A DNA stretch of 64,000 nucleotides from Clostridia bacterium. GTDB taxonomy: Bacteria > Bacillota > Clostridia > Oscillospirales > CAG-272. Location of the stretch: positions 16,702 through 80,701 of the forward strand of contig JAFULC010000023.1 of assembly GCA_017483305.1 (NCBI GenBank). Direction: 5' to 3'. Position numbers and translations under genes: made by a program. How positions within the stretch are numbered: the first letter of the stretch is position 1; every line of letters begins with the position of its first letter. Shown here one piece after another: positions 2,264 to 46,781 of this stretch. Under the pieces are notes generated by a model. The model was not told where the DNA came from. It did no database searches and saw only the letters and a list, made by a program, of their open reading frames with translations.

Positions 2264-3037
2264 TTAATCAACCGTTAATCCGTACTCGTCTATAACTTTC
2301 TCAATCAGACTACACATTGTATCATCACACAGCAAATAACTATAGTCACCATAGTCTGAAAAATACTCGTATGAAAAATCGGAGTATATTTCTAAGTAAT
2401 ACTTGCCTTCATACGAATATATTTTCGCTATCCAAAGTATATTGGGATAATCTTTGATTGAAAAACTAATTGCTAAATTGTTTCTTTTTGTATCTGTAGC
2501 TGTACGCACCGGACGTGCATGAGGCCACCAATCTTTAGGGCGTGGCATTGCTTCAACGCCGAAATTGTAAATATCCGTTGCAACCAACTCTGCTACCGTT
2601 GCATCAACTTTTGTTAATTGCTGTTTTTTTAATTCTGTTTCATACGATCCAACATCATTAACAAAAGGGATTCCCATCAAAAACAATTCAGCCGAGGATA
2701 TATCAAGCTCTAACTGATGATCTGAGTCTTTTCGCCTCATAACGTGTGGAAAATCGGAGCCTCGAAATAAACCTCTCTCGCTAACCGTACACCCGATGTA
2801 TTCTTGAACTGGAACGTCTACAATTTTGTAATAAGCAAAGTAATAATCAGTGGTATAATCATGATCGAAACTCTTAGGATTACATTCGGTCCAAACATAG
2901 TTGGAGCTTAAAAGTTCATAATTGGAGATGTCCATTTCATCAAACACATCTATAATATCTAAAAAACTGGTCGAGCATGACGAGAACATGAGGACAGATA
3001 GCAGAATGCAAACAAATAAAATGTGTTTTTTCTTCAT
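2264..3037 (-). CDS. Hypothetical lipoprotein
   Basis: The N-terminus MKKKHILFVCILLSVLMFSSC is a signal peptide plus a lipobox-like Cys. An AGGAGGA RBS lies upstream. The gene is visibly more AT-rich than its flanks. I recognise no family. Confidence 0.6.
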   Translation of the reverse strand: MKKKHILFVCILLSVLMFSSCSTSFLDIIDVFDEMDISNYELLSSNYVWTECNPKSFDHDYTTDYYFAYYKIVDVPVQEYIGCTVSERGLFRGSDFPHVMRRKDSDHQLELDISSAELFLMGIPFVNDVGSYETELKKQQLTKVDATVAELVATDIYNFGVEAMPRPKDWWPHARPVRTATDTKRNNLAISFSIKDYPNILWIAKIYSYEGKYYLEIYSDFSYEYFSDYGDYSYLLCDDTMCSLIEKVIDEYGLTVD

Positions 3038-3318
3038 AATAATCCTCCTTAAATTATTTCAAATCAACAATTAAAAAGCGCATAGTACGGCACTTATCCC
3101 GACACTATGCGCAAAGTATATTTAGATTATATGCTTCGAAATATCGCTCGTAACGGATAACCGTAGCTTCACTAAACGTGTCAAGGATAATTTCATCTCC
3201 GCAATTACATTATACCATGCTTTGGCGACATTGTCAAGCATAACTTAAAAACATCCCCAAGTGAACCAAAAAACATCCCCGAGCGACGTGAAGGCGCTGG
3301 GGGCTATGTTTTATAAGA

Positions 3319-3675
3319 TTATGCCGGAATATACCAAGGGTATATAAATCGATATGCGCGGCCTTCTGAATCAAAATGGATTTGAAAATATACGGCTGGA
3401 TCTGTTCCAAAAGGTCCAACGCGTTTCTCTTTCACTTCATAACAACAACCTGCAGAATAATAGTTTCCATCTTCGCTTTTTTCTTTATGACCTCGAATAA
3501 AGTCAAATGATCCGTATCTTTCTTCGATCTCAGAGGATGTTTTCCCAAGCATCCATTCCATGTCATCCATGTCAAAGCGCCGTTTATTTGAACACGAAGC
3601 TAAGCAAATGAGAGTTGCGATTATTACACAAACAATTAAACAAGCAAATATTCTTCTTTTTTTCTTATTATTCAT
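3319..3675 (-). CDS. Hypothetical small lipoprotein
   Basis: The N-terminus MNNKKKRRIFACLIVCVIIATLICLASCSN contains the lipobox LASC. A GGAGGATTAGGAA RBS region lies upstream and the gene is AT-rich. Confidence 0.6.
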   Translation of the reverse strand: MNNKKKRRIFACLIVCVIIATLICLASCSNKRRFDMDDMEWMLGKTSSEIEERYGSFDFIRGHKEKSEDGNYYSAGCCYEVKEKRVGPFGTDPAVYFQIHFDSEGRAYRFIYPWYIPA

Positions 3676-4946: not shown

Positions 4947-5096
4947 AAGGTTTTTCCTCTTTTGTTTTTTATTGATTAGAGTATATCACTTTTTTTCGGC
5001 TGTGACAAGGTCAAAAATAGACCAAAATTTTGTGGCTTTCGGTCGATTTTTGTGTATTATGTAAATACAAGTGTATATACACTTTGCTTCAAAGGA

Positions 5097-5130
5097 AAGC
5101 ATATTTCCCGACGGGTCGGGAAATATGCTT
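5097..5130. terminator. Hairpin terminator downstream of polA
   Basis: AAGCATATTTCCCGAC GG GTCGGGAAATATGCTT with T/A runs on both sides. Confidence 0.5.
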
Positions 5131-5141
5131 TTTTTGTTTGA

Positions 5142-7667
5142 TCAATGGCATTCGAGCCAATTTTCGCCTATATGGGCATCGACCTTAAGCGGAACTGCCA
5201 GCTTGACGGCATTTTCCATTTCGGTTCGGAGTATTTCGAGGATCTCCTCGGCACATTCGCGCGGACTTTCAATGAGCAACTCGTCGTGAACCTGAAGGAG
5301 CAGCTTTGCTCCCTTTCCGTGCTTGCGGAGCGCTTTATCTACGTTTATCATGGCTATTTTGATGATATCCGCGCTGCTTCCCTGAATCGGGCTGTTTCTT
5401 GCGACTCTCTCACCGAAATTCTGAAGATTTTTGTTGGTGGAGGCGAGCTCGGGGATATATCTGCGTCTGCCGAGCATCGTCGTGACGTAGCCGTCCTCTC
5501 TCGCATCTCTTGCGACGTTATGCAGATACTCGTTGATACCGGGGTAGCTTGCAAGGTAGCTGTCAATGTACTCCTTCGCCTTGGCGCGAGATATCTTAAG
5601 GTCCTCCGCAAGCGAAAATTCGCCCATTCCGTAAAGAATTCCGAAGTTTACCGCCTTGGCTCTCTTTCGCATCTCGATCGTGACCTCGGGAGGTGTAACA
5701 CCAAAGACGCGGCAGGAGGTTGCGGTGTGGATATCCTCGCCCGAAAGGAAGGCTTCGATCATATTTTCGTCGCTCGAAACGTGCGCGAGCACGCGGAGCT
5801 CGATCTGTGAATAGTCGGCATCGATGAGCACCTTACCGCTATCGTTTGAGATGAAATATTCGCGGAAGCGTCTGCCTGCCTCGGTTCTTATCGGGATGTT
5901 CTGTAGATTGGGGTTGACCGAGGAAAGACGTCCCGTTGCCGTTCCCGTTTGCTTGAAGGTGGTATGGCATTTGCCGTTTTCGTCGGCGCTCTTTAAGAGA
6001 CCGTCGACGTACGTGCTCTTGAGCTTGCTTACCTGTCTGTAATCGAGTATATCGTCGATGATCGGGTGATATTTGCGGAGCTTTTCGAGCACCTCGGCGT
6101 TGGTGGAATAGCCTGTTTTTGTCTTTTTGACGGTCGGGAGCATGAGCTTTTCAAAGAGCACCTCGCCGAGCTGCTTGGGGGAATTTATGTTGAATTCCTC
6201 ACCTGCCATTGAGTATATTCGCTCCTCGAGCGCTCTTACCTGCTCCTCGAGCTCCTCGCCGTAGCGCGCTATGCCCTCGCGGTCGATCTTGAAGCCTGCG
6301 TTTTCCATATCGCAGAGGACTGCGGCAAGTGGCATTTCGATGTTATAGAGCAGGTCGAGCTGACCGCTTTCCGCGAGTCTTTTCTCTATGATCTGCCACA
6401 TTTTTGCGACGTAGTACGCTTCTGGGATGCTTTCGTCGGCGGTGTCGCCGAGATACGAGCCGATGAGCTTTTCAAGCTCGTAGCTGCTCTGCGAGGAATC
6501 GTCGACGTATGCGCCGAGCATTACGTCAAAGTAGCAATCACGGAAGTGGATGCCCTTTGAGTCAAGGGACTTATAGAGGGATTTGCAATCCCATGCGATT
6601 ATTTTCTTGGTTTTGATAAAGCTTGCAAGCGCGTCCGTGTTGCTTGTGGCGGCAACTGTTTCACCGTCGGAAATATATGCCTTTTCGTCTGTGAGGGAGA
6701 GGGCGTACATCTCGCCGCCGAGAGAAGTGAAGTCGGCGTTCTCGATGACGGTAACGCTTGATTTTTCCGTCGCTTCGGGCAGGCTTGAGGGCTCGTCCGC
6801 ATCCTTATCGAGTCCGCAACGCTTTATTGCGGAGAGGAGATTGTAGCGCAAAAACAGCTTTTTCGCCTCGGAGCGATCGATTCCCTTGTGGGCAATATCC
6901 GAAAGGGTGATGCCAAGGGGGACGTTGCGGATTATAGTTGCAAGGCCCTTGGACATATACGCGCTTTCCCTGCCGTTTTCCATCTTGGCTCTGACCGAGG
7001 GGGTGAGCTTGATGTTATCGAGATTTTCGTATATGGCGTCGAGGCTTCCCTGCTCTGCGATGAGTCTGAACGCGGTCTTTTCACCAACGCCTGCGACACC
7101 CGGAATGTTGTCCGAGCTATCGCCCATAAGCGCTTTTACGTCGATGTACTGACACGCGTGTACTCCGTATTTTTCAAAGAACGCCGCGTCGTCCATCGTC
7201 ACTGTGTCGGTATTCGTGGCGAGAAGCACCTTTGTCTTATCGCTGATGAGCTGGAGCGAGTCGCGGTCGCCCGTGAGCACGTACGCCTCGGTGTCGCTCT
7301 CGTTCTCTGCCCAAGCCGCGAGCGTGCCGAGTATGTCGTCCGCCTCGTAGCCTGCGAGCTCGAGCACGTGAAGTCCCATTGCGCGACAGATCTCCTTTGC
7401 CACGGGAAGCTGCTTTGCGAGGTCCTCGGGCATCGGCTTTCTGCCTGCCTTATATTCGCCGTACATTTCATGGCGGAAGGTGGGCGCTTTGAGGTCAAAC
7501 GCTACCGCCGCGTAGTCGGGCGAGAGTCCTTCGAGCTGCTTTATGAGCACGTTTACCATGCCGAAGATGGCGTTGGTGGGAAAGCCGTCGGGCGTGGAGA
7601 GAGGTCTGATACCGTAAAACTGTCGGTTAAGTATACTGTTTCCGTCTATACAGAGTAGTTTTTTCAT
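5142..7667 (-). CDS. polA: DNA polymerase I
   Basis: 841 aa. It has a 5'-3' exonuclease N-terminus (CIDGNSILNRQFYG...GYEADDILGTLA) and polymerase motifs DYSQIELRVLAH, RRxAKAVNFGILYG and QVHDELL. Confidence 0.95.
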   Translation of the reverse strand: MKKLLCIDGNSILNRQFYGIRPLSTPDGFPTNAIFGMVNVLIKQLEGLSPDYAAVAFDLKAPTFRHEMYGEYKAGRKPMPEDLAKQLPVAKEICRAMGLHVLELAGYEADDILGTLAAWAENESDTEAYVLTGDRDSLQLISDKTKVLLATNTDTVTMDDAAFFEKYGVHACQYIDVKALMGDSSDNIPGVAGVGEKTAFRLIAEQGSLDAIYENLDNIKLTPSVRAKMENGRESAYMSKGLATIIRNVPLGITLSDIAHKGIDRSEAKKLFLRYNLLSAIKRCGLDKDADEPSSLPEATEKSSVTVIENADFTSLGGEMYALSLTDEKAYISDGETVAATSNTDALASFIKTKKIIAWDCKSLYKSLDSKGIHFRDCYFDVMLGAYVDDSSQSSYELEKLIGSYLGDTADESIPEAYYVAKMWQIIEKRLAESGQLDLLYNIEMPLAAVLCDMENAGFKIDREGIARYGEELEEQVRALEERIYSMAGEEFNINSPKQLGEVLFEKLMLPTVKKTKTGYSTNAEVLEKLRKYHPIIDDILDYRQVSKLKSTYVDGLLKSADENGKCHTTFKQTGTATGRLSSVNPNLQNIPIRTEAGRRFREYFISNDSGKVLIDADYSQIELRVLAHVSSDENMIEAFLSGEDIHTATSCRVFGVTPPEVTIEMRKRAKAVNFGILYGMGEFSLAEDLKISRAKAKEYIDSYLASYPGINEYLHNVARDAREDGYVTTMLGRRRYIPELASTNKNLQNFGERVARNSPIQGSSADIIKIAMINVDKALRKHGKGAKLLLQVHDELLIESPRECAEEILEILRTEMENAVKLAVPLKVDAHIGENWLECH

Positions 7668-10783: not shown

Positions 10784-10812
10784 TTGACACAAGAAGAAAC
10801 AAATTGTATAAT
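10784..10812 (+). promoter_or_regulatory. Consensus sigma-A promoter of the cassette
   Basis: TTGACA (10784-10789), a 17-nt spacer, then TATAAT (10807-10812). The RBS AAGGAGA lies upstream of the ATG at 10860. Confidence 0.65.
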
Positions 10813-10859
10813 AATATCACAACGTCACGCGACGGACATTTACACAAGGAGATAGAAAA

Positions 10860-11534
10860 ATGCTGCATTTTTTGGGCGACGGCTCTGCATTTAACGTGGA
10901 TTCAAATAACACCTCTGCGTATATCAAAAAGGGTGATGCCATGATTCTTTTTGACTGCGGCGAGCGTATATGCAACGTCATCATCAAGGCAGGAATTCTT
11001 GAGGGGATCAAAAGGCTTCACCTCTTTATCACCCACACTCACAGCGATCATATTGGCTCGCTTGAAGGATTTATCTACTATATCCATTACTTTACGGATA
11101 TAAAGCTGTCGGTCTACTATCCCCACACCTCGCGTCTCGATAAGATGATGCGTATGCAGGGCCTTGAGTTTGAGTATGCGACACTTCCCGTGCCCGAGCA
11201 GGTCGAGGGATACCGCGTAGATGCGGTAAGACAAAAGCATATGTTCGGAGCATACGGCTTCTTTTTCTACTCTGAGGGCGACTCCTTCTTCTTCAGCGGT
11301 GACACCTCGGTGATAAGCAAGCGTGCAAAAAAGGAGCTTTGCGAGGGCAAGATCGATGTTATTTACCACGAGGTAAGCTTTTCGGATTCTCCCATTCACA
11401 CACCCATAGCGGACCTTGAAAAAGCATTTCCGATGGAGATAAGAGACAAGGTCTATCTTATGCATTTTGCAAACGACGCCTGCCGCGAGATGGCGGCGGC
11501 CAAAGGATTTTCGGTCGTTTCGGTCGAGTATTAA
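10860..11534 (+). CDS. Metallo-beta-lactamase fold hydrolase (small stand-alone, phosphodiesterase/nuclease-like)
   Basis: 224 aa. The motif is LFITHTHSDHIGSL, i.e. H59-x-H61-x-D63-H64. Downstream metal-ligand candidates are QKHMFG, FSGDT and VIYHEVSF. Confidence 0.8.
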   Translation: MLHFLGDGSAFNVDSNNTSAYIKKGDAMILFDCGERICNVIIKAGILEGIKRLHLFITHTHSDHIGSLEGFIYYIHYFTDIKLSVYYPHTSRLDKMMRMQGLEFEYATLPVPEQVEGYRVDAVRQKHMFGAYGFFFYSEGDSFFFSGDTSVISKRAKKELCEGKIDVIYHEVSFSDSPIHTPIADLEKAFPMEIRDKVYLMHFANDACREMAAAKGFSVVSVEY

Positions 11535-11558: not shown

Positions 11559-14399
11559 ATGAATTCAAAAAACATATTCATAAGCTACGGACACGGCATT
11601 CAGGATCACGCCGTAAAGCGCCTGGCGGATGACCTTCGGGAATTCGGATTTCAGGTGTTTTTGGACGTTGATTATTTGAAAATGGGTGACTGGGAAAAAA
11701 TAATCGACGAGCATATCATTGCCTCAAAATATTTTCTCTTTATGGTATCCTCGCGCTCGGTAGCTCACGACGGATATTGCCTCAACGAGCTTTGTCGCGC
11801 AGGTGAAAACTCTGCTGAGATCATCCCCATAAAGCTTGACGAGTCTATGCTTCCGCTCTCAATAAACAAGCATCAGCGTCTGTCTATGATCCCCTGTATT
11901 TCCCCCGACGGCACTATTATAGAGTCGGTCTACAAGAACTTTCTTGTAAATCTGGTCGAGATCCTCTCGGGCAAGACTGCTCTTGGCTTCTCGGACGCGG
12001 ATATGCGACTTCGCGGTGCGCTCAAGCCCGTATTCTCAAAGGACCTGACGTACAGTTATTACGCGACCTTCTGCGGAAGACGCGACGTGTTTGCAAAGGT
12101 TGAAAGCTTTATTAATTCAAATAAAAACATATTCTGGCTCAACGCTGCACCCGGAACGGGTAAGACGGCGTTTTCATCCATGCTTACCTGGCGCTATCCC
12201 GAGATCGTCGGTGCGGCGCACTTTTGCAAGTTCAACAACTCCGACCGAGTTAACCCCAAGGTAATAATCTCGTCCATAGCATATCAGCTCTCGGAAAGCA
12301 TCCCTGCATACCGCGAAAAGCTTTTGGGACTTATGGAGCTTGACTCTCTCTTTGAGAAAAATCCCGCGAGGATATTTGAATATCTTATCGTCGAGCCTCT
12401 CAGCACAATAGAGCGTGAGACCCCCGTCCTTGTGGTAATAGACGCACTCGACGAATGCTCATGGCGAGGCAGTAACGAGATATGCACCATACTTCAACAT
12501 ACACGTGAGAATTTGCCGCATTGGCTCAAATTCTTCTTGACCAGCCGCAACGAAGCGATAATAAGAAGAACACTTCTGCCCATCGCGCAAACCTACACGC
12601 TCTCCGAATCGAAGACCGAGGATGATCTGCGTGAGTATTACAGAATGCAGTTCCCGAGCGCTACGAGTGACAAGATCGAGCTTCTGCTTACAAAGAGCGA
12701 CGGATCCTTCCTTTACGCCAGCGAAATAGTAAAGCAGATAAAGGAAGAAAATCTTTCACTTGACGACATAAATTTCTTCCCGATAGGCATCTACGGCTTT
12801 TACAATGATTGCTTCTCGCGTATTTTCGACAGCAACAACGAGGACGCACTCGACTACAACACCGTAAAGCCTCTCTTTGAGCTTCTTTGCATAGAGCAAG
12901 AGCCGACCGAGCTTTCCTTCCTCGAGGATTTTCTCGATTGGGACGAATATACCTTAAAGAATATCCTTTCCCGCATAAACGGACTTTTCCCCACCAAGAA
13001 CGGTTTTATAGAGCCGCTGCACAAATCCATTATAGACTGGCTGACAAGCGACGATATGGGGCAGCTCTTCTATATCAGCCGCAAGAACGGATACAAGCGA
13101 CTCCTCGCCTACATAGAGGATGAATATACAAATGGCAAGTGGCACAAGAATAAATACGTTCTCAAGTATTTCGGCTTTGTGCTTATTGAGCTCAAGCGCT
13201 ACGATCGACTTGCCGACATTCTTTCGGACTGTGCGCTCGTCGAGGAAATGATAGACTATTTTGAGTTCGATTCGGGACTTGAAAGCTATCTCTCCGAGCT
13301 TGAGATACTCAACGAAAACGCCAAGGAGCGATGCCTTGAGCTTCTCACCGGCGCAACGTTTATCAAGATATTCTCCGAGAACAGACGCTTGCTTTACAAC
13401 TCGGGAATGTTCTTCAAGCTCAAGCAGCTTGGACTGTCGGTGGCTCTCCGTCAGGACACCAGCGATTGGGGACTTGAGGGTGAGGTAGGAAAGGTATTTT
13501 ACTACTACATCGTCGAGGATTTTGCCAAGGCGATAAAAAAGGCGGCAGGACTTATATCACGCGGCGAGGGCGGCGAGATGACCGCGTCCATACTTTCCGA
13601 GCTATACAACGTAAAGGGGCTCTCGGAGCGAAAGATCGTGCGCTTCGACGATGCGCTCGAGAGCTTTGAGAAGAGCATCGAGTACGCCGAGGTGGCGATA
13701 GATGAGATGGATACCACGCACAGCGACGCCGAGTTTGAGCTATCGCTTGCATATCTGATAAAGGGCAAGATATTTCTCAGTACCCTGCGCTTTGATGAAA
13801 GCAACAAGAGCTGCAAGAAGGCGATCAAGGTGCTCTCCCGAAAGATCGACGAGATGCCCGACTCCGATAAGCGCATATCCAATCTGCTGTTTTTAGCCGA
13901 GGATTATCGCGTATCCGCTTACGGCTACATCTGGCAGGGAGAGTATGAGATGGCGGCGGACAGACTGCTCTCTGCTGAGGAGATCTACCGCGAAAACAGC
14001 AACACTGTCGACAGATATTATATACGCTTTTTGTACACGTCGATCTTTCTCAAGATAATGGAAGGCAAAACGTCGGGGGTACTTGACGAGCTAAAGCAGC
14101 TTCTCTGCGAGGTCTCAAGCTCAAAGTATGACAAGGGACAGCTGCATTTCCTGACAGCACTCGAGATATTCCTTAATCATAAGGACGATATGGAGCTTGC
14201 CGCAGAGGGACTGAAGCACGCAAGAAGCGGCTCGGATATTTACGAGTCAATCGACGCGTTGCTTGAAAAGGCGGAATGCGATCTTATGATAAAGTATCTT
14301 TCCTCACGCATAGGCAAGAGAGCGCTTATTGATGAGGAAGATAACGAATACGTAGAAGAATGGATCAGCTATCTCGATTCCATTCTGAGCAAAAGATAA
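11559..14399 (+). CDS. TIR-NACHT-TPR protein (bacterial NLR-like STAND NTPase; candidate antiphage sensor/effector)
   Basis: 946 aa. The N-terminal TIR region has IFISYGH...FLDVDYL...KYFLFMVS...DGYCLNEL, with the catalytic-type Glu at E77. Walker A is NAAPGTGKT (K202), Walker B is VLVVIDALDEC (D295, D298-E299), and FLTSRNE is a NACHT-type sensor motif. The C-terminal ~400 aa are helical and TPR-like. Confidence 0.8.
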   Translation: MNSKNIFISYGHGIQDHAVKRLADDLREFGFQVFLDVDYLKMGDWEKIIDEHIIASKYFLFMVSSRSVAHDGYCLNELCRAGENSAEIIPIKLDESMLPLSINKHQRLSMIPCISPDGTIIESVYKNFLVNLVEILSGKTALGFSDADMRLRGALKPVFSKDLTYSYYATFCGRRDVFAKVESFINSNKNIFWLNAAPGTGKTAFSSMLTWRYPEIVGAAHFCKFNNSDRVNPKVIISSIAYQLSESIPAYREKLLGLMELDSLFEKNPARIFEYLIVEPLSTIERETPVLVVIDALDECSWRGSNEICTILQHTRENLPHWLKFFLTSRNEAIIRRTLLPIAQTYTLSESKTEDDLREYYRMQFPSATSDKIELLLTKSDGSFLYASEIVKQIKEENLSLDDINFFPIGIYGFYNDCFSRIFDSNNEDALDYNTVKPLFELLCIEQEPTELSFLEDFLDWDEYTLKNILSRINGLFPTKNGFIEPLHKSIIDWLTSDDMGQLFYISRKNGYKRLLAYIEDEYTNGKWHKNKYVLKYFGFVLIELKRYDRLADILSDCALVEEMIDYFEFDSGLESYLSELEILNENAKERCLELLTGATFIKIFSENRRLLYNSGMFFKLKQLGLSVALRQDTSDWGLEGEVGKVFYYYIVEDFAKAIKKAAGLISRGEGGEMTASILSELYNVKGLSERKIVRFDDALESFEKSIEYAEVAIDEMDTTHSDAEFELSLAYLIKGKIFLSTLRFDESNKSCKKAIKVLSRKIDEMPDSDKRISNLLFLAEDYRVSAYGYIWQGEYEMAADRLLSAEEIYRENSNTVDRYYIRFLYTSIFLKIMEGKTSGVLDELKQLLCEVSSSKYDKGQLHFLTALEIFLNHKDDMELAAEGLKHARSGSDIYESIDALLEKAECDLMIKYLSSRIGKRALIDEEDNEYVEEWISYLDSILSKR

Positions 14400-14415: not shown

Positions 14416-15192
14416 ATGAATATCAATTCGCTGATGCTCCGTCTGACGGAGATAACGAAGGAGGCGGGAGCGCGACTGCTTGCGCAGACGGTAACCGTGA
14501 ACAGTCACAAGACAAAAAATGATCTTCTGACCGAAAACGATCTCGCCACGGAAAACTATATTATTTCCGAGCTGAAAAAATATTATCCCGATGTAAATAT
14601 CATCAGTGAGGAATACAATCCCGACAATGAGCTTGAGGGAGTTACCGTAATAATCGATCCCATTGACGGCACTTGCAATTATGCGGTCGGAATGGATCTT
14701 TTCGGCATACAGCTTGCAGTCTTTGAGGATAATGTGTGCCGTGCATCGCTGCTTTACTTCCCTGTCAGCGGCGACATTTATACCGCGGAAAAGGGCAAGG
14801 GCGCATATCTCAACGGAAAGCCCTTGAGAGTTGATACGGGTGCAACTCCGAGAAATGGGATGCTCTTTATCAGCGACTACTACGACTCTATCGGAATACC
14901 GATGGATAAGCAGTTTGGTCTTGTAAAAGCGCTTCAAAAGCACTTTTTGAAGACACGTCACTTTGGTGCGGCATGCGTGGATTTTTCCATGATCGCAAAG
15001 GGACACGGCGTGGCATATATTACGTATTACCACAAGATCTGGGATATCGCCCCGGGGCTTTTGATCGCCACCGAGGCCGGATGCGTAAGCGGCGGTCTGG
15101 ACGGAGAGTACCGATACGGTGAGCCCGGACTTGTAGTCGCAACAAACAGCGAAACGCTCGAGCTTATCCGCAGACTTTACCGAGAGGTGTAG
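14416..15192 (+). CDS. Inositol monophosphatase family phosphatase (IMPase/SuhB/CysQ-like)
   Basis: 258 aa. Motifs are ISEEYNP (E65-E66), VIIDPIDGTCNY (D81, D84, T86) and KIWDIAPG. The RBS TAGGAGC lies 8 nt upstream. The start is 16 nt after the stop of the TIR-NACHT gene. Confidence 0.8.
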   Translation: MNINSLMLRLTEITKEAGARLLAQTVTVNSHKTKNDLLTENDLATENYIISELKKYYPDVNIISEEYNPDNELEGVTVIIDPIDGTCNYAVGMDLFGIQLAVFEDNVCRASLLYFPVSGDIYTAEKGKGAYLNGKPLRVDTGATPRNGMLFISDYYDSIGIPMDKQFGLVKALQKHFLKTRHFGAACVDFSMIAKGHGVAYITYYHKIWDIAPGLLIATEAGCVSGGLDGEYRYGEPGLVVATNSETLELIRRLYREV

Positions 15193-15276: not shown

Positions 15277-15305
15277 TTGACAAATCAGATTTTGTGTGCT
15301 ACAAT
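15277..15305 (+). promoter_or_regulatory. Sigma-A promoter of the trpS T-box leader
   Basis: TTGACA (15277-15282), a 17-nt spacer, then TACAAT (15300-15305). Confidence 0.65.
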
Positions 15306-18844: not shown

Positions 18845-19441
18845 TTATTTCGCTTTTTTCATAGGACGAAGGGTCTTAGGATCTATCGCGGCGCAGACGA
18901 TCACGGCAAAAATGCCTGTGAGGACTGTGGTGGGCAGCATATAAGAGCTGTTATAGATCAAGGAATACACCCAGACGTTCATATTCTCGGGACCGGACGA
19001 GCCCCAGAGGATGACACCCGAGAGAAAGCTTGAAACGAAACGGATAAGGCAGACTGCGACCGCGCCGACACAATAGCCTGCGATGCGCTTTTTGCCGAAA
19101 GGCTTTGCAAAAAGGTCTGCCGCGCCCACTACCGCAAACGCTACGAGATAGTCAAGCACTATGCAAAGCACGAGCGCCCACCACGTGCCTGCGGGCGGGA
19201 TATAAAATCCGAGCAGCATCTGAAGCAGCGAGTAGACAAATCCCGCGCCGACGCCCCAAAGCGTGCCGTGTCGGTAGGAATAGTAGATTATCGGGAGCAT
19301 GCTTATGGTTATCGTTCCCCCGAAGGGTAAAAGCGCGCCGACACCCGTAATCGTGTTGAGCCAGACACAGAGCAGCTCGAGCACGTAGGCAAGAGCCAAT
19401 GACAGAGCTCCCTCTGTGACACAAAGAATTCTTTTTTTCAT
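18845..19441 (-). CDS. thiT: ECF-type thiamine transporter S component
   Basis: The start was chosen at 19439-19441 (MKKRILCVTEGALSLALAYV...) after AAGGAGGAG. The 198-aa product has about 6 TM segments. It lies directly downstream of a TPP riboswitch. Confidence 0.75.
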   Translation of the reverse strand: MKKRILCVTEGALSLALAYVLELLCVWLNTITGVGALLPFGGTITISMLPIIYYSYRHGTLWGVGAGFVYSLLQMLLGFYIPPAGTWWALVLCIVLDYLVAFAVVGAADLFAKPFGKKRIAGYCVGAVAVCLIRFVSSFLSGVILWGSSGPENMNVWVYSLIYNSSYMLPTTVLTGIFAVIVCAAIDPKTLRPMKKAK

Positions 19442-19456
19442 TTGTGATCTCCTCCT

Positions 19457-19501
19457 TAAAAAATAAAAATTCATCCGCACGAAAAATCACGGTCGGATGA
19501 A
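19457..19501 (-). terminator. Riboswitch expression-platform terminator
   Basis: The minus strand reads TTCATCCGACCGTGATTTTTCGTGCGGATGAA followed by TTTTTATTTTTT. Confidence 0.7.
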
Positions 19502-19545
19502 TTTTTTATGAGGGCGGGCGTGGCTTGCCCGATTCACAAAGCTAT

Positions 19546-19640
19546 TCTATCAAAATCTTCCTACGCCGGTATTATCCGTATCAGGTACAAGGGTTCGGAG
19601 TTCTCCGTCTCAGCCTATCTCTCGCCACTGTGCACTCGTG
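19546..19640 (-). promoter_or_regulatory. TPP (THI-box) riboswitch
   Basis: The minus strand reads ...GGCGAGAGATAGGCTGAGACGGAGAACTCCGAACCCTTGTACCTGATACGGATAATACCGGCGTAGGAAG. It contains the conserved CUGAGA and ACCUGAU-GGAUAAUACC-GCG elements. Ends are approximate. Confidence 0.85.
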
Positions 19641-19700
19641 TCAAGCTTCGGCACCCCTGATTTTTTATGCGGTTTTTTGTCGGCTTCAGCCGACGGTTTG

Positions 19701-38635: not shown

Positions 38636-39451
38636 ATGAATGAATCAAAATACAGTGATCTTATTGCGAAAATACAGAAAAAAAGAAAATGGGTAATTGC
38701 TTTAACAATAGTAGCGGTATTATTGGTTATACTGCTTACCTCACCAATAAAATTAGAAGTAATGGGAGAGATCGTTGTTGATTACAAAGGGTTGCATCCC
38801 GTTCTTACCATATTATTTGTTTTCTTTTGCTTTTTTATTGAAATCGTTGCTTACGCTATGGTTTCTCTGCCTTTAAACACATCAATGGATCAAGAATGTG
38901 ATCCCGAAAAGCACCTGATATTGAATTCGTCACTTAATAAACAGAAAAATATTGATTACGTTTATTCCGTTGATCATCTGTATTTGGGAAATTATACCGA
39001 ATCCATCAAATATGCAGAAAAAATGATCGCAAGTGCAAATGAGCCGATGGTATTGGTGGGGTTATTCAACAAAGCAAGATGTGAATTTCTTGCCGCTGAT
39101 TATGATACCTTCACTCAAACAGCAAGCCAATACGCGAACACATTGTCAAGATGTCAGAAAATAAAACCTCGATCTATGGTAGAATATCAAAAAATCAGCC
39201 GCATCATTGATTTGATGCTCGCCGTTTCAAAAGATGATTGGGATACTATCAATAAAATTCGTAATAATATTGAAGTTTGGAATGCATCTAAAGCAACGGA
39301 AGGATTTGTCAATTATATAAGAGGTATTGCTGCGTATAAAGCAAACGACAAAGAAGAAGCAATATACCGGCTTAAAGCTGTAGAAGAACATTGCTCAAGA
39401 ACAATTTTGGCAAGGCTTGCAATCGAACATCTTGATTTGCTCAAGGAATAA
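38636..39451 (+). CDS. Hypothetical membrane-anchored protein with helical (TPR-like) C-terminal region
   Basis: 271 aa with two predicted TM helices near the N-terminus (WVIALTIVAVLLVILL; VLTILFVFFCFFIEIVAYAMV). It is strikingly AT-rich relative to addA and eno. I recognise no family. Confidence 0.55.
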   Translation: MNESKYSDLIAKIQKKRKWVIALTIVAVLLVILLTSPIKLEVMGEIVVDYKGLHPVLTILFVFFCFFIEIVAYAMVSLPLNTSMDQECDPEKHLILNSSLNKQKNIDYVYSVDHLYLGNYTESIKYAEKMIASANEPMVLVGLFNKARCEFLAADYDTFTQTASQYANTLSRCQKIKPRSMVEYQKISRIIDLMLAVSKDDWDTINKIRNNIEVWNASKATEGFVNYIRGIAAYKANDKEEAIYRLKAVEEHCSRTILARLAIEHLDLLKE

Positions 39452-44106: not shown

Positions 44107-44227
44107 CTTTTTTCTTTCCACCGTCCGCGTCGCATTTGCCGCCTTGGAGGCGACGGAAACCGCCGCCTCCAAGGCTTTGATCAAATTCGGGTGCGACCGA
44201 TATTTGTTGAATTTGTTATTTTTGAGA

Positions 44228-46654
44228 TCAGTTAAGGGGCTTGAGATTCCAGAACTTGTCGGCATACTCCTTGATGGAGCGGTCTGCCGCGAAGAAGCCT
44301 GCCGCACTGGTATTGAGAAGCGACATTCTCGTCCACTTTTCTCTGTCATCATACGCCTTGAGCATCTCGTCGTGAGTCATACGGTAGGACTCGAAGTCGG
44401 CAAGGCACATATAGGGGTCTGCAACTCCGTTGCCTGTCAAAAGATAGGTTGCTATATCCGCAAAGGACTCGCCCGCAAAGCCGATCGAGAGGAAGTTAAT
44501 GATTCTGCGGAGTCTTGCATTGTTCGAGTAGAACTCTGCGGCACGGTAGCCGTTAAGCCAGAGCTTTTCGACCTCGTCACTCTTAAGACCGAAGATATAC
44601 ATATTATCCTTACCGACCGCATCAAGCATTTCGACGTTTGCGCCGTCGAGAGTACCGATGGTAATAGCGCCGTTGATCATAAGCTTCATACAGCCCGTAC
44701 CGCTTGCTTCCTTACCTGCAAGCGAGATCTGCTCGCTGATATCTGCCGAGGGAATGAGAATCTCGGCGGTGCTTACATCGTAGTTCTCAAGGAACACGAC
44801 ATTGAGCTTTTCCTTGATCTTGGGGTTGTTGTCGATGTCCTTGGAGATCATACAGAGAAGCTGAATGATTCTCTTTGCCATCTGATATCCGGGCGCTGCC
44901 TTTGCTCCGAAGATAAAGGTCTGAGGACGGATGTCAAGATCGGGGTTATCCTTGAGCTCGAGGTATATACCGATGATATTGAGTGCATTGAGGAGCTGTC
45001 TCTTATACTCGTGAAGTCTCTTGATCTGTACGTCGAAGAGCGAATGGGTATCGATTTTCTTTCCTGTTTTAGCGTAAAGATGATTTGCGAACGCGATCTT
45101 GTTGTTGTGCTTGATCGCGCGGACTCTTTCGAGCACTGCCTTATCGTCTGCAAACTTTGCAAACTCGGCAAGCTCTATGGGATTATGTCTGTATCCCGTG
45201 CCGATGCACTCGTCGAGCAGAGCTGCCAATTCGGGATTCGAGTAGCAGAGCCAACGGCGGTGTGCGATACCGTTCGTTACGTTTTCGAACTTGTAGGGAT
45301 ACATCTTATAGAAATCGTTGAATACCGTCTTGGTGAGAATATCAGAGTGGAGCTTGGAAACGCCGTTTACCGAATGAGATCCGATAACCGAGAGATTTGC
45401 CATTCTTACAGAGCCGTATCCAATTACGCTCATCTTGCTTATTCTCTGCCAGTTACCAGGGAACGCGTTCCAAGCGTCGCGGCAGAATCTTTCATTGATC
45501 TCCTTGATGATGTCGTATATTCTGGGAAGCTTGAGCTTGAAGAGATCCTCGTTCCAGGTCTCAAGCGCCTCGGGCATTACGGTGTGGTTGGTATACGAGC
45601 AGATCTTTACAACCTTATCCCACGCGTCCTCCCAAGAGAAGAAATAATCGTCCACGAGAATTCTCATAAGCTCGGGGATACAGAGTGCGGGATGGGTATC
45701 GTTGATATGGATAGCTACCTTTTCATCGAGGTTCGAGAGCGTGCCGTAGACTGCCATGTGATCGCGGATGATGCTCTGCACCGATGCGGAAACGAGGAAG
45801 TACTGCTGAGAGAGACGAAGGAGCTTTCCTTCGGTGTGGTTATCCGAGGGATAGAGCACCTTGGTGAGAGTTTCGGCATTTGTGCTATCCTCAACTGCCT
45901 TATGATACTGTCCCTGAGTAAACAGGCCCATATTGAAGTTCTGGATATTTCTTGCCTTCCACAGACGCAGGCGGCTGACGCCCTTACTGTCTGCTCCCGA
46001 GATCATCATATCGTAAGGAACTGCCTCGATCTCCTCGCTGTTTTCATAAATAACGGTCATGTGGTTATTTTCCCACTTTTCGCGGACGTGTCCTCCGAAG
46101 CGGACTACGAATGCGCGGTCTGTTCTCGGAACGAGCCAGACCTCTCCGCCGGGAAGCCATACGTCAGGAAGCTCTACCTGCATGCCGTCGACGATCTTCT
46201 GCTTGAAAAGACCGTACTCGTAGCAGAGCGAGAAGCCTGTTGCGGGGTAGTCGAGAGAGGACAGAGAGTCCATAAAGCAAGCGGCGAGTCTTCCAAGACC
46301 TCCGTTGCCAAGTCCCGCGTCGGGCTCGCACTCGTAAAGATCGTTGAGCTTGAAACCAAGCGCCTCAAGCGCCTCTCCGTAGGACTTGTCAAGTCCGAGG
46401 TTACAGACGTTGGTCTTGAGCGATCTGCCGAGCAGGAATTCCATACACATATAGTAAATGCGCTTTGCGCCCTTTTTGTTGACTTCCTTTTTGAAGTCGC
46501 CGCGCTTTTCGGTGAGGATGTCGCGGACGGTCATAGAGACCGCCTTATACATCTGCTCGTCGGATGCTTCGGCGGGAGTACAGCCAAAATAGCGCGAAAG
46601 CTTGATTTCAATGTTTTCTTTGATTTTTGCCGGGGTCAAATTTTCTTGATTCAT
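44228..46654 (-). CDS. glgP: Glycogen/maltodextrin phosphorylase
   Basis: GT35 hallmarks are LGNGGLGRLAACF and the PLP site EASGTGCMKLMINGA. The track start 46699 is a GTG without an RBS. The ATG at 46654 (MNQENL...) is the alternative used here, so the start is uncertain by 15 codons. Confidence 0.9.
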   Translation of the reverse strand: MNQENLTPAKIKENIEIKLSRYFGCTPAEASDEQMYKAVSMTVRDILTEKRGDFKKEVNKKGAKRIYYMCMEFLLGRSLKTNVCNLGLDKSYGEALEALGFKLNDLYECEPDAGLGNGGLGRLAACFMDSLSSLDYPATGFSLCYEYGLFKQKIVDGMQVELPDVWLPGGEVWLVPRTDRAFVVRFGGHVREKWENNHMTVIYENSEEIEAVPYDMMISGADSKGVSRLRLWKARNIQNFNMGLFTQGQYHKAVEDSTNAETLTKVLYPSDNHTEGKLLRLSQQYFLVSASVQSIIRDHMAVYGTLSNLDEKVAIHINDTHPALCIPELMRILVDDYFFSWEDAWDKVVKICSYTNHTVMPEALETWNEDLFKLKLPRIYDIIKEINERFCRDAWNAFPGNWQRISKMSVIGYGSVRMANLSVIGSHSVNGVSKLHSDILTKTVFNDFYKMYPYKFENVTNGIAHRRWLCYSNPELAALLDECIGTGYRHNPIELAEFAKFADDKAVLERVRAIKHNNKIAFANHLYAKTGKKIDTHSLFDVQIKRLHEYKRQLLNALNIIGIYLELKDNPDLDIRPQTFIFGAKAAPGYQMAKRIIQLLCMISKDIDNNPKIKEKLNVVFLENYDVSTAEILIPSADISEQISLAGKEASGTGCMKLMINGAITIGTLDGANVEMLDAVGKDNMYIFGLKSDEVEKLWLNGYRAAEFYSNNARLRRIINFLSIGFAGESFADIATYLLTGNGVADPYMCLADFESYRMTHDEMLKAYDDREKWTRMSLLNTSAAGFFAADRSIKEYADKFWNLKPLN

Positions 46655-46781
46655 TTGCGTTTTATACCTTTCGGATTGATTTTCGTAATTGTCGTTCACG
46701 TTGATCCGTGAAACAGAGCTCCGCTTACAAAAGGCTTTATAAGCAGAGGTCCGCTACACGAAAGCTATGCTTTTTAAAACT

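Follow-up and report, generated by a model that had tools for sequence, protein, structure and literature searches.

A TIR-NACHT protein of the bacterial NLR type in a mobile operon with exchangeable phosphoesterase partners

In SARM1, a TIR NADase, a helical-repeat domain controls activity by sensing a phosphorylated nucleotide, via the ratio of nicotinamide mononucleotide (NMN) to NAD+, and SAM domains drive oligomerization of the protein. For the bacterial bNACHT proteins, an N-terminal TIR is among the listed effector domains and TPR among the listed sensors (10.1101/2022.07.19.500537). In the Metis system, the haloacid dehalogenase (HAD) protein MisB clears basal m6dAMP, the nucleotide trigger of an NAD+-depleting effector; it prevents autoimmunity and is dispensable for defence (10.1101/2025.11.05.686725). 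Here we describe a gene from a Clostridia bacterium, within a 64,000-nt stretch of contig JAFULC010000023.1 (positions 16,702 to 80,701, referred to as the window), that codes for a 946-aa NLR-type protein composed of a TIR domain, a NACHT NTPase and a TPR-like sensor. The TIR-NACHT-TPR architecture is already known in bacteria, and the new element is an almost obligate but exchangeable phosphoesterase partner, represented in the window by a metallo-beta-lactamase (MBL)-fold enzyme and an inositol-monophosphatase-family enzyme (IMPase). No description of TIR-STAND proteins with obligatory phosphoesterase partners was found in the searched literature, most subscription-journal papers being outside its scope.

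With bNACHT and Avs proteins the window family shares the layout of effector, nucleotide-binding oligomerization domain (NOD) plus repeat sensor as well as a NOD of the NACHT clade, and Avs3 is the top match of the window protein in a Foldseek structure search. Characterized bNACHT and Avs members are described as single-gene systems that sense phage proteins, usually via variable sensors, whereas the window family combines a conserved sensor of fixed length with an almost obligatory phosphoesterase partner, which is not mentioned in those papers. Membership in Avs (AVAST) types 1-5 was rejected, as no PADLOC match to Avs NTPase or sensor models was obtained. The order of TIR, NOD and repeat sensor is also that of the plant TNLs RPP1 and ROQ1, and Foldseek covers the TIR and NOD of the RPP1 resistosome (7crc_B, E 3.7e-8); the window motif YCLNEL resembles WCLxEL, which we take to be the plant motif around the catalytic Glu. 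The original prediction, made from the DNA sequence alone, had called the protein plant-TNL-like, a description that fits the domain order but fails for the NOD, which is of the NACHT and not the NB-ARC type, and for the sensor, which is TPR-like and not LRR. The window protein gave no Pfam match to NB-ARC or LRR and is not a plant-type TNL, and its bacterial operon encodes hydrolases and no EDS1-type receptor.

Among solved TIR sequences, SARM1 and C. elegans TIR-1 come closest and align at the catalytic Glu, and one variant of the window family (P0139) carries a SAM domain. SARM1 differs in its SAM-driven oligomerization, the lack of a STAND NTPase and an N-terminal ARM sensor, and its TIR alone is homologous to the window protein. 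The likeness to Thoeris, Apyc1 and RyDEP lies in TIR-based NAD+ chemistry, in an MBL partner related to the cyclic-nucleotide phosphodiesterase Apyc1, and in RyR genes that occur as alternative partners. The window protein does not belong to Thoeris: its TIR is fused to a STAND NTPase and sensor, a separate ThsA-type effector with a signal-binding domain is absent, and the other operon genes code for small hydrolases without a signal-sensing domain. A systematic Thoeris screen explicitly discarded TIRs in Avs proteins. Unlike phage Apyc1 and RyDEP, which act in counter-defence, the window-type hydrolases are host-encoded inside the system. Metis is similar in operon logic alone, an NAD+-depleting sensor-effector standing beside a small phosphatase, and a resemblance in mechanism is hypothetical. 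There is no homology between the two: MisA consists of a PUA-like domain and a Metallophos NAD+ diphosphatase and is not a TIR-STAND protein, and MisB is an HAD_2 protein, whereas the partners of the window family are IMPase, MBL, Cof-type HAD, Nudix, Metallophos, PHP or His_Phos enzymes. Membership in Metis was rejected, since the window operon contains neither a MisA- or MisC-type protein nor a PF13419 protein.

The central protein

The open reading frame (ORF) has a GC content of 0.48, against 0.495 for the window, and contains all the motifs quoted in the original prediction. In the TIR region these are IFISYGH (residues 6-12), FLDVDYL (34-40), KYFLFMVS (57-64) and DGYCLNEL (71-78, containing E77), and in the NTPase FWLNAAPGTGKTAF (192-205, containing K202), ETPVLVVIDALDEC (287-300) and KFFLTSRNE (324-332). 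Pfam TIR_2 matches residues 6-99 (E 5.9e-13; 49.8 bits, cut-off 28). When a family profile of the TIR region was compared with solved structures, C. elegans TIR-1 and human SARM1 were the best matches (1.5e-10), followed by AbTir, the SPARTA TIR-APAZ and Cat1, and E77 aligned with the Glu of 'WVHKE' in SARM1 and TIR-1, which in SARM1 is presumably the catalytic E642. The Pfam model NPHP3_N (PF24883), a NACHT-clade NTPase model, matches residues 186-330 (E 1.6e-25; 90.6 bits, cut-off 24.8). PF05729 NACHT scores 17.2 for the window protein, below its threshold of 26.7, and is recorded for many homologs, which also match a TANC1-type winged-helix model. The protein carries the NACHT-clade STAND motifs APGTGKT (with K202), VVIDALDE (with D295, D298 and E299) and TSR (with R330).

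The signal lies well beyond chance: database searches with a threshold of E<=1e-5 returned 830 proteins, and among the best 120 of them about 115 have the same architecture of approximately 945 aa. In an alignment of 41 homologs with identities down to 27%, the invariant TIR residues are F7, S9, Y10, H12, D36, W45, C74, L75 and E77, the last of these being invariant also in a set of 27 sequences. Invariant in the NOD are G199, G201 and K202 of Walker A, D295, D298 and E299 of the NACHT-style Walker B D-x-x-D-E, the sensor-1 R330 and, in the winged-helix region, H488 and K489. The catalytic signatures are thus intact, as originally proposed.

An AlphaFold2 model built with the family alignment (mean pLDDT 87) shows a flavodoxin-like beta-alpha TIR fold to approximately residue 140, a linker at ~141-185, an NTPase core of the alpha/beta type with helical and winged-helix subdomains behind it and, from ~530 to the end, a repeat domain made up of helices alone. 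The spacer of about 110 aa that had been proposed between TIR and NTPase is mostly the second half of the TIR fold, the linker being confined to ~141-185. Foldseek comparison with the PDB returned Avs3 (8dgc, 7.7e-10), a STAND-TPR protein (6mfv, 1.4e-9), RPP1 (7crc), SAMD9, MalT (8bob) and Apaf-1 (1z6t), with TM-scores that are low (0.2-0.5) because the comparison is a superposition of multidomain proteins. The predicted long C-terminal helical region is modelled as all-helical with high pLDDT; TPR Pfam models match it weakly (TPR_8 E 0.05), and Foldseek returns TPR proteins. The profile searches with TIR, NACHT and TPR models and the structural comparison placed the N-terminal domain in the TIR fold and the NTPase among NACHT-clade STAND proteins rather than generic AAA+. 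The ORF encodes a bacterial NLR-like protein in which the TIR is followed by a STAND NTPase of the NACHT clade and, at the C-terminus, by an all-helical domain resembling TPR. TIR identity and the catalytic Glu suggest that the TIR would consume NAD+.

The sensor is conserved to an extent close to that of the other domains. A search with residues 531-946 alone (exhaustive HMMER, 1.84 billion representative proteins) gave 75 clusters, and in nearly all of these the sensor occupies ~535-940 of proteins of ~930-1000 aa. Mean pairwise identity is 0.43 for residues 531-700 and 0.35 for residues 701-946, compared with 0.46 for the TIR and 0.49 for the NACHT. Gaps amount to less than 3%, and 34 charged or aromatic residues, rich in Arg, Lys and Tyr, are near-invariant, with conserved motifs at YYY648-650, E653, R691-K692 and D818-R819-Y820..R823..Y826. 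This conservation argues weakly against a protein sensor engaged in an arms race, and the domain looks like a binder of a conserved ligand.

Table 1 Coordinates of the cassette and of core genes in the window (aa, amino acids)
Feature	Position in window	Strand	Basis
Promoter-like site TTGACA-17-TATAAT, 12/12 match to the sigma-70 consensus, upstream of the first cassette gene	10784..10812	+	Consensus match alone
Partner gene 1: MBL-fold phosphodiesterase, Apyc1/RNase Z-like, 224 aa; HxHxDH at residues 59-64	10860..11534	+	Pfam, PDB sequence matches
Central gene: TIR-NACHT-TPR-like NLR-type protein, 946 aa, ATG start	11559..14399	+	ORF, Pfam, alignment, model
TIR domain, residues 1-140 (codon of catalytic Glu E77, 11787-11789)	11559..11978	+	TIR_2, family profile, model
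NACHT-type NOD, residues 186-530, with helical and winged-helix subdomains (invariant H488 and K489) after sensor 1	12114..13148	+	NPHP3_N, invariant residues
NOD codons: Walker A K202; Walker B D295-E299; sensor-1 R330	12162-12164; 12441-12455; 12546-12548	+	
C-terminal all-helical TPR-like sensor domain, residues 531-946	13149..14396	+	Model, Foldseek, conservation
Partner gene 2: inositol-monophosphatase-family phosphatase, 258 aa; E65-E66, D81-P-x-D84-G-T, W209-D210	14416..15192	+	Pfam Inositol_P, E 2.7e-45
PolA	5142-7667	-	
AddB/AddA helicase-nuclease pair, 1060 + 1246 aa	31668-38608	+	

Partner genes in the window and across the family

The central gene is the middle gene of a mobile three-gene operon that also codes for the MBL phosphodiesterase and the IMPase-family phosphatase. 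The originally proposed single polypeptide is indeed one ORF, but its gene forms the centre of a conserved operon with phosphoesterase genes. All three genes lie on the same strand, separated by 24 nt between MBL and NLR and by 16 nt between the NLR stop codon and the IMPase gene. DNA similarity to the nearest related cassettes (L001, L011 and L025) extends from 10844-10859 to ~15142 and is confined to the three genes, its onset falling just downstream of the promoter-like site; the next strong promoter match, at 15277-15305, lies upstream of trpS.

The MBL partner matches Pfam Lactamase_B_2 above its cut-off (32.6 bits) and Anti-Pycsar_Apyc1 below it (43.4 bits, cut-off 50), and Apyc1 matches are on record for orthologous partners at other loci. 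Its nearest PDB sequences are 7fct (E 1.5e-28), Apyc1 (7u2r/7u2s, ~5e-12) and RNase Z, and the metal ligands H59, H61, D63, H64, H127, D148 and H202 are invariant in nine partner orthologs. The nearest PDB sequences of the IMPase partner are IMPase/SuhB (~1e-25), and its catalytic motifs (EE, DPxDGT, WDxAxG) are invariant in 16 orthologs; DxD is likewise invariant in the HAD partners found at other loci.

For comparison of gene neighbourhoods, 79 genome loci coding for relatives were fetched. An IMPase-family gene directly adjoins the NLR gene in ~20 of these and an MBL gene in ~12, and in a clade of ~33% identity the downstream gene codes for an MBL, a Cof-type HAD phosphatase or, at one Sphaerochaetaceae locus, a cupin-Nudix protein. 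The other neighbours in the window (flavin reductase, aminotransferase, TrpS, ABC transporter, PolA and SH3 protein) recur at none of the 79 loci, even at 82% protein identity, and housekeeping synteny was on this ground rejected as an explanation for the genes that flank the NLR gene. Of 32 family genes, 27 have an adjacent phosphoesterase gene by ORF calls. Among the five exceptions, tblastn revealed in three an IMPase masked by greedy ORF calling, one is cut by a contig end, and one is a second, shorter copy in L029; L011, L018 and L030, where the family gene itself is cut by a contig end, stand outside the count.

Since profile hidden Markov models (HMMs) derived from the partners would make an estimate of the background rate circular, the census was taken again with Pfam on all immediate neighbours. 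Among 57 neighbour proteins of the full-length family, the Pfam census counted Inositol_P 15 times, Lactamase_B_2 eight times, HAD families five times, and NUDIX and PHP once each. As a control, 44 loci were analysed that code for TIR-NACHT homologs with different C-terminal sensors. Their 81 neighbour proteins include no phosphoesterase family with two or more members, the recurrent families being TPR, other TIR proteins, RyR and DUF4062. The enrichment is 30/57 against at most 5/81 neighbours (Fisher exact p = 7e-10 in the worst case, which assumes one hidden singleton per phosphoesterase family in the control set).

Metagenome contigs, read through precomputed Pfam labels, widened the range of partners: a 4'-phosphopantetheinyl-transferase (PPTase) fold with a Nudix gene nearby at 47% identity, a calcineurin-like Metallophos enzyme at 44%, an IMPase with overlapping start codon at 38%, an IMPase together with an Apyc1-type MBL at 36%, and an HAD enzyme at 31%. 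On a short contig coding for P0085 (35% identity), no phosphoesterase was seen, and the upstream neighbour is an ankyrin-repeat protein. At 28-29% identity other partners are found, either a 101-aa RyR-domain protein or an unknown protein of 672 aa. The RyR protein (E 4e-32) is encoded upstream of P0112 at L084:1481-1786 (+), and also in L085 and L086. Host-encoded RyR genes adjoin other TIR-NACHT genes as well, accounting for four of the 81 neighbours of distant homologs (L032-L079).

The coupling between NLR and partner is visible at several levels. Start and stop codons overlap (-4; ATGA) at many loci, and IMPase divergence tracks NLR divergence (Mantel r 0.90, with 0 of 5000 permutations as high). 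When the NLR proteins are placed on a neighbour-joining tree, partner classes group by clade; several have been replaced in discrete events, and the MBL has been gained or lost repeatedly.

The search with the sensor alone returned almost one architecture, and the exceptions bear on the pairing. P0156 (1218 aa, seven contigs) has a non-TIR helical N-terminus, a NACHT, the same sensor and a C-terminal His_Phos_1 domain (E 4e-39), and is a Rosetta-stone fusion with another phosphoesterase fold. P0145, grouped with P0150, has no TIR and a degenerate Walker B, and is encoded behind a PHP-family phosphoesterase, beside HTH and AbiEii genes. The metagenomic P0139 (1193 aa) has an N-terminal SAM domain and ~340 aa without Pfam match, followed by NACHT and the same sensor. 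In the split form P0134, the TIR is on a separate overlapping ORF and an Apyc1-type MBL follows. This branch comprises eight contigs, in which a 113-aa TIR ORF shares 17 nt with the beginning of the NACHT-sensor ORF (L098:4676-5017 / 5001-7511 (+), also L099 and L100); the overlap may reflect a true split of the gene or else a frameshift, either programmed or recurrent. P0122 has no NTPase core and looks like a decayed or chimeric gene.

Phosphoesterase pairing is therefore near-universal in the NLR family, with the partner class varying by clade and at least seven unrelated folds involved: IMPase, MBL, HAD, Nudix, Metallophos, PHP and PPTase fold, together with the fused His_Phos of one variant. 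Non-homologous replacement is a classic sign that the activity itself matters. Together with translational coupling, co-divergence and the one fusion, it indicates that selection acts on the hydrolysis of a small, phosphorylated molecule.

L098 carries further TIR genes. At L098:9175-11511 (-), and also in L100, a different TIR-STAND protein of 777 aa combines an NB-ARC/nSTAND3-type NOD with TPRs, and an IMPase-family gene (L098:8392-9165, -) lies 9 nt on, so that pairing of TIR-STAND with a phosphatase extends beyond the NACHT family of the window. At L098:1700-3460 (-), a 585-aa protein fuses TIR to a RuBisCO large-subunit-like domain (RuBisCO_large E 1.4e-52). On its 3' side follow, after 6 nt, a His_Phos_1 phosphatase (L098:1046-1693, -) and then an 857-aa RyR-domain protein (L098:1-1033, -). 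Fusion of TIR to a sugar-bisphosphate-binding fold is unusual, and this may be another metabolite-gated TIR system.

Distribution and surroundings

The cassette occurs in gut anaerobes of the Clostridia, Bacilli/Anaeroplasma, Coriobacteriia and Spirochaetota and on a Bacteroidota-like contig. In relatives its surroundings are of the defence type, with AbiEii/ArdA, IS21 and a cluster of TIR-STAND genes, which suggests that the cassette has an immune role. Searches of the PADLOC-DB v2 defence models gave matches of the NLR protein in the TIR region (PDC-S66, Aga TIR, SAVED_TIR and bSEFIR) and a single marginal one around Walker A, to PDC-M16A over residues 174-209 (E 0.011). The partner enzymes matched just a generic Nudix candidate (PDC-S07) and, weakly, a Metallophos 'Effector' model, and the Thoeris and retron TIR models of NCBIfam scored far under their cut-offs.

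In the window, the presence of PolA, AddB/AddA, GlgB and TrpS indicates that the cassette is embedded in core chromosomal genes. Other features of the window include a full-length bacterial large SRP RNA (1116-1381, -; 172 bits) and a thiamine pyrophosphate (TPP) riboswitch (19541-19668, -; 70 bits) in the ordinary arrangement upstream of a ThiT/YuaJ-type thiamine transporter gene (18845-19480, -). No T-box was found upstream of trpS at Rfam gathering thresholds. The only clearly low-GC stretch (0.395 versus ~0.50), at 2264-3675 (-), holds two ORFs of 256 and 117 aa without Pfam match and may be foreign DNA. Two further ORFs, of 271 aa (38636-39451, +), in a lower-GC segment (0.447), and 855 aa (44144-46711, +), have no Pfam match at E<=1e-5.

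Proposed mechanism and alternatives

The whole is best explained, with a probability that we put at about one half, by an NLR of the abortive-infection type whose partner hydrolases set its activation threshold. In this mechanism the conserved helical C-terminal domain would bind an activating ligand, and the NACHT module would then exchange nucleotide and oligomerize via K202, D295/D298/E299 and R330. The clustered TIR domains would form active NADase sites (E77) and collapse cellular NAD+, stopping growth or phage replication. The adjacent phosphoesterases would be active enzymes that destroy the phosphorylated small molecule that controls the switch, and would thereby set the threshold and prevent self-activation. 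The course from ligand through NACHT release and oligomerization to NAD+ cleavage is taken by analogy with characterized STAND and TIR systems; NADase activity, oligomerization and an immune role are inferred, as are the substrate of the partners and what they do.

Several observations weigh against this explanation. The family had no match among 50,697 phage records searched by tblastn; the plasmid collection gave two weak partial matches alone and a scan of IMG/VR none. Carriage by prophages, plasmids or viruses was accordingly rejected, and the NLR family appears to be chromosomal. No known STAND defence model in PADLOC-DB v2 matches the NTPase or the sensor. The surroundings in the window are housekeeping genes (PolA, aminotransferase, TrpS, AddAB), and the co-divergence of NLR and IMPase could partly reflect shared species phylogeny.

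Within the threshold mechanism, the hydrolysed molecule is somewhat more probably the trigger sensed by the C-terminal domain, a danger signal of the nucleotide or sugar-phosphate kind, than the product of the TIR itself. This is favoured because the pairing follows the sensor chassis, including the TIR-less P0156 and P0145, and is absent from TIR-NACHTs with other sensors, and because the sensor almost matches the enzymatic domains in conservation and looks like the binder of a conserved ligand. Most partners, moreover, are phosphomonoesterases, to which ADP-ribose (ADPR) and the isomers of cyclic ADP-ribose (cADPR), carrying no phosphomonoester, offer no substrate. A precedent for a phosphatase acting on the trigger is provided by MisB of Metis (10.1101/2025.11.05.686725).

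The evidence that counts against a trigger-side substrate is largely that which favours the leading alternative. There, the TIR would make ADPR-type nucleotides (ADPR, 2'cADPR or 3'cADPR, or a phosphorylated NADP+ derivative), and partners or RyR proteins would degrade, buffer or convert them, either rendering basal TIR activity harmless or yielding a mature signal. An RyR-domain protein takes the place of the partner in the P0112 branch, and RyR genes adjoin other, distant TIR-NACHT genes. Binding or cleavage of 2'cADPR and 3'cADPR, both TIR products, has been demonstrated for RyR-domain proteins, though for phage-encoded members alone (PMC13232231). In L098, unrelated TIR proteins also have phosphatase neighbours, an IMPase after the TIR-NB-ARC-TPR protein and His_Phos_1 and RyR after the TIR-RuBisCO fusion, with TIR as the common denominator. 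The Nudix and Metallophos partners belong to families whose members commonly hydrolyse ADP-ribose. Against a product-side role, the 44 TIR-NACHT loci with other sensors have no recurrent phosphoesterase neighbour, and chassis variants without a recognizable TIR keep the phosphatase, fused in P0156 and as PHP with P0145. The commonest partners, IMPase and HAD, are phosphomonoesterases, a phosphomonoester is missing from the canonical TIR products, and the cassette contains no gene for a signal-responsive effector. On balance we consider this alternative serious but less likely than not.

A substrate on the trigger side and one on the product side could be brought together by a feed-forward design with a TIR-type product as the ligand of the sensor, which is pure speculation. 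We propose only tentatively that the family senses a small phosphorylated nucleotide or sugar-phosphate rather than a phage protein. This would be a danger signal of infection, for example a breakdown product of nucleic acid or NAD, or a TIR product in a feed-forward loop, and the partner hydrolase would serve as a built-in quencher that sets the firing threshold.

Less probable is a role for the phosphoesterases as co-effectors directed against counter-defence. After activation they would destroy intermediates of NAD+ salvage or reconstitution, such as ADPR, ADP-ribose pyrophosphate (ADPR-PP), NMN and phosphoribosyl pyrophosphate (PRPP), or other nucleotides, making NAD+ collapse irreversible and blocking its reconstitution by the phage. 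Phages rebuild NAD+ from ADPR and nicotinamide, and according to the Metis authors alternative NAD+ cleavage evades this (10.1101/2025.11.05.686725); RyDEP feeds ADPR into NARP1 (PMC13232231). The diversity of partner classes would also fit a loosely specified task of destroying phosphorylated intermediates. Hydrolases that are co-expressed constitutively and show no regulatory domain would, however, be at work in uninfected cells as well. No action of IMPase or Cof-type HAD enzymes on ADPR, ADPR-PP, NMN or PRPP is known, and the fusion of His_Phos to the C-terminal end of the sensor suggests a tighter, regulatory coupling.

It is rather improbable that the cassette is not immune at all and monitors a phosphorylated metabolite independently of phages, as a switch in metabolic stress or nucleotide homeostasis or as a programmed-death or addiction module. 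The housekeeping context in the window, the absence from phage, plasmid and viral collections, the unusually conserved sensor and the lack of a known defence HMM for NTPase or sensor would agree with such a function, as would the fact that SARM1, the closest solved TIR, is a metabolic sensor. The neighbourhood differs between close relatives, however, and the family is spread over several phyla, as is typical of accessory defence genes; relatives stand beside AbiEii, ArdA, IS21 and other TIR-STAND genes, and all characterized bacterial TIR-STAND, bNACHT and Avs proteins are antiphage (10.1101/2022.07.19.500537). Finally, that the MBL and IMPase genes are ordinary housekeeping genes flanking an inserted NLR gene is strongly disfavoured, for although both families are common housekeeping enzymes and the IMPase is most like SuhB/IMPase, all informative related loci have a partner while the other neighbours all differ, the enrichment has p<=7e-10, start and stop codons overlap by 4 nt at many loci, divergence is correlated (r 0.90), and the partner position is taken by phosphoesterases of at least seven unrelated folds, one of them fused to the NLR protein.

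The pairing rule points to small-molecule control of a bacterial NLR, which is not described for Avs or bNACHT in the searched papers. If the family does sense a small phosphorylated molecule that its partner quenches, it would represent SARM1-type metabolite gating in a prokaryotic form built around an NLR, and the principle of Metis would be generalized to STAND receptors. Confirmation of small-molecule control would link bacterial NLRs, the sensing of danger metabolites as in Metis and the SARM1-like gating of TIR NADases, and would reveal, in gut anaerobes, a new family of regulators of nucleotide immune chemistry that are encoded by the host.

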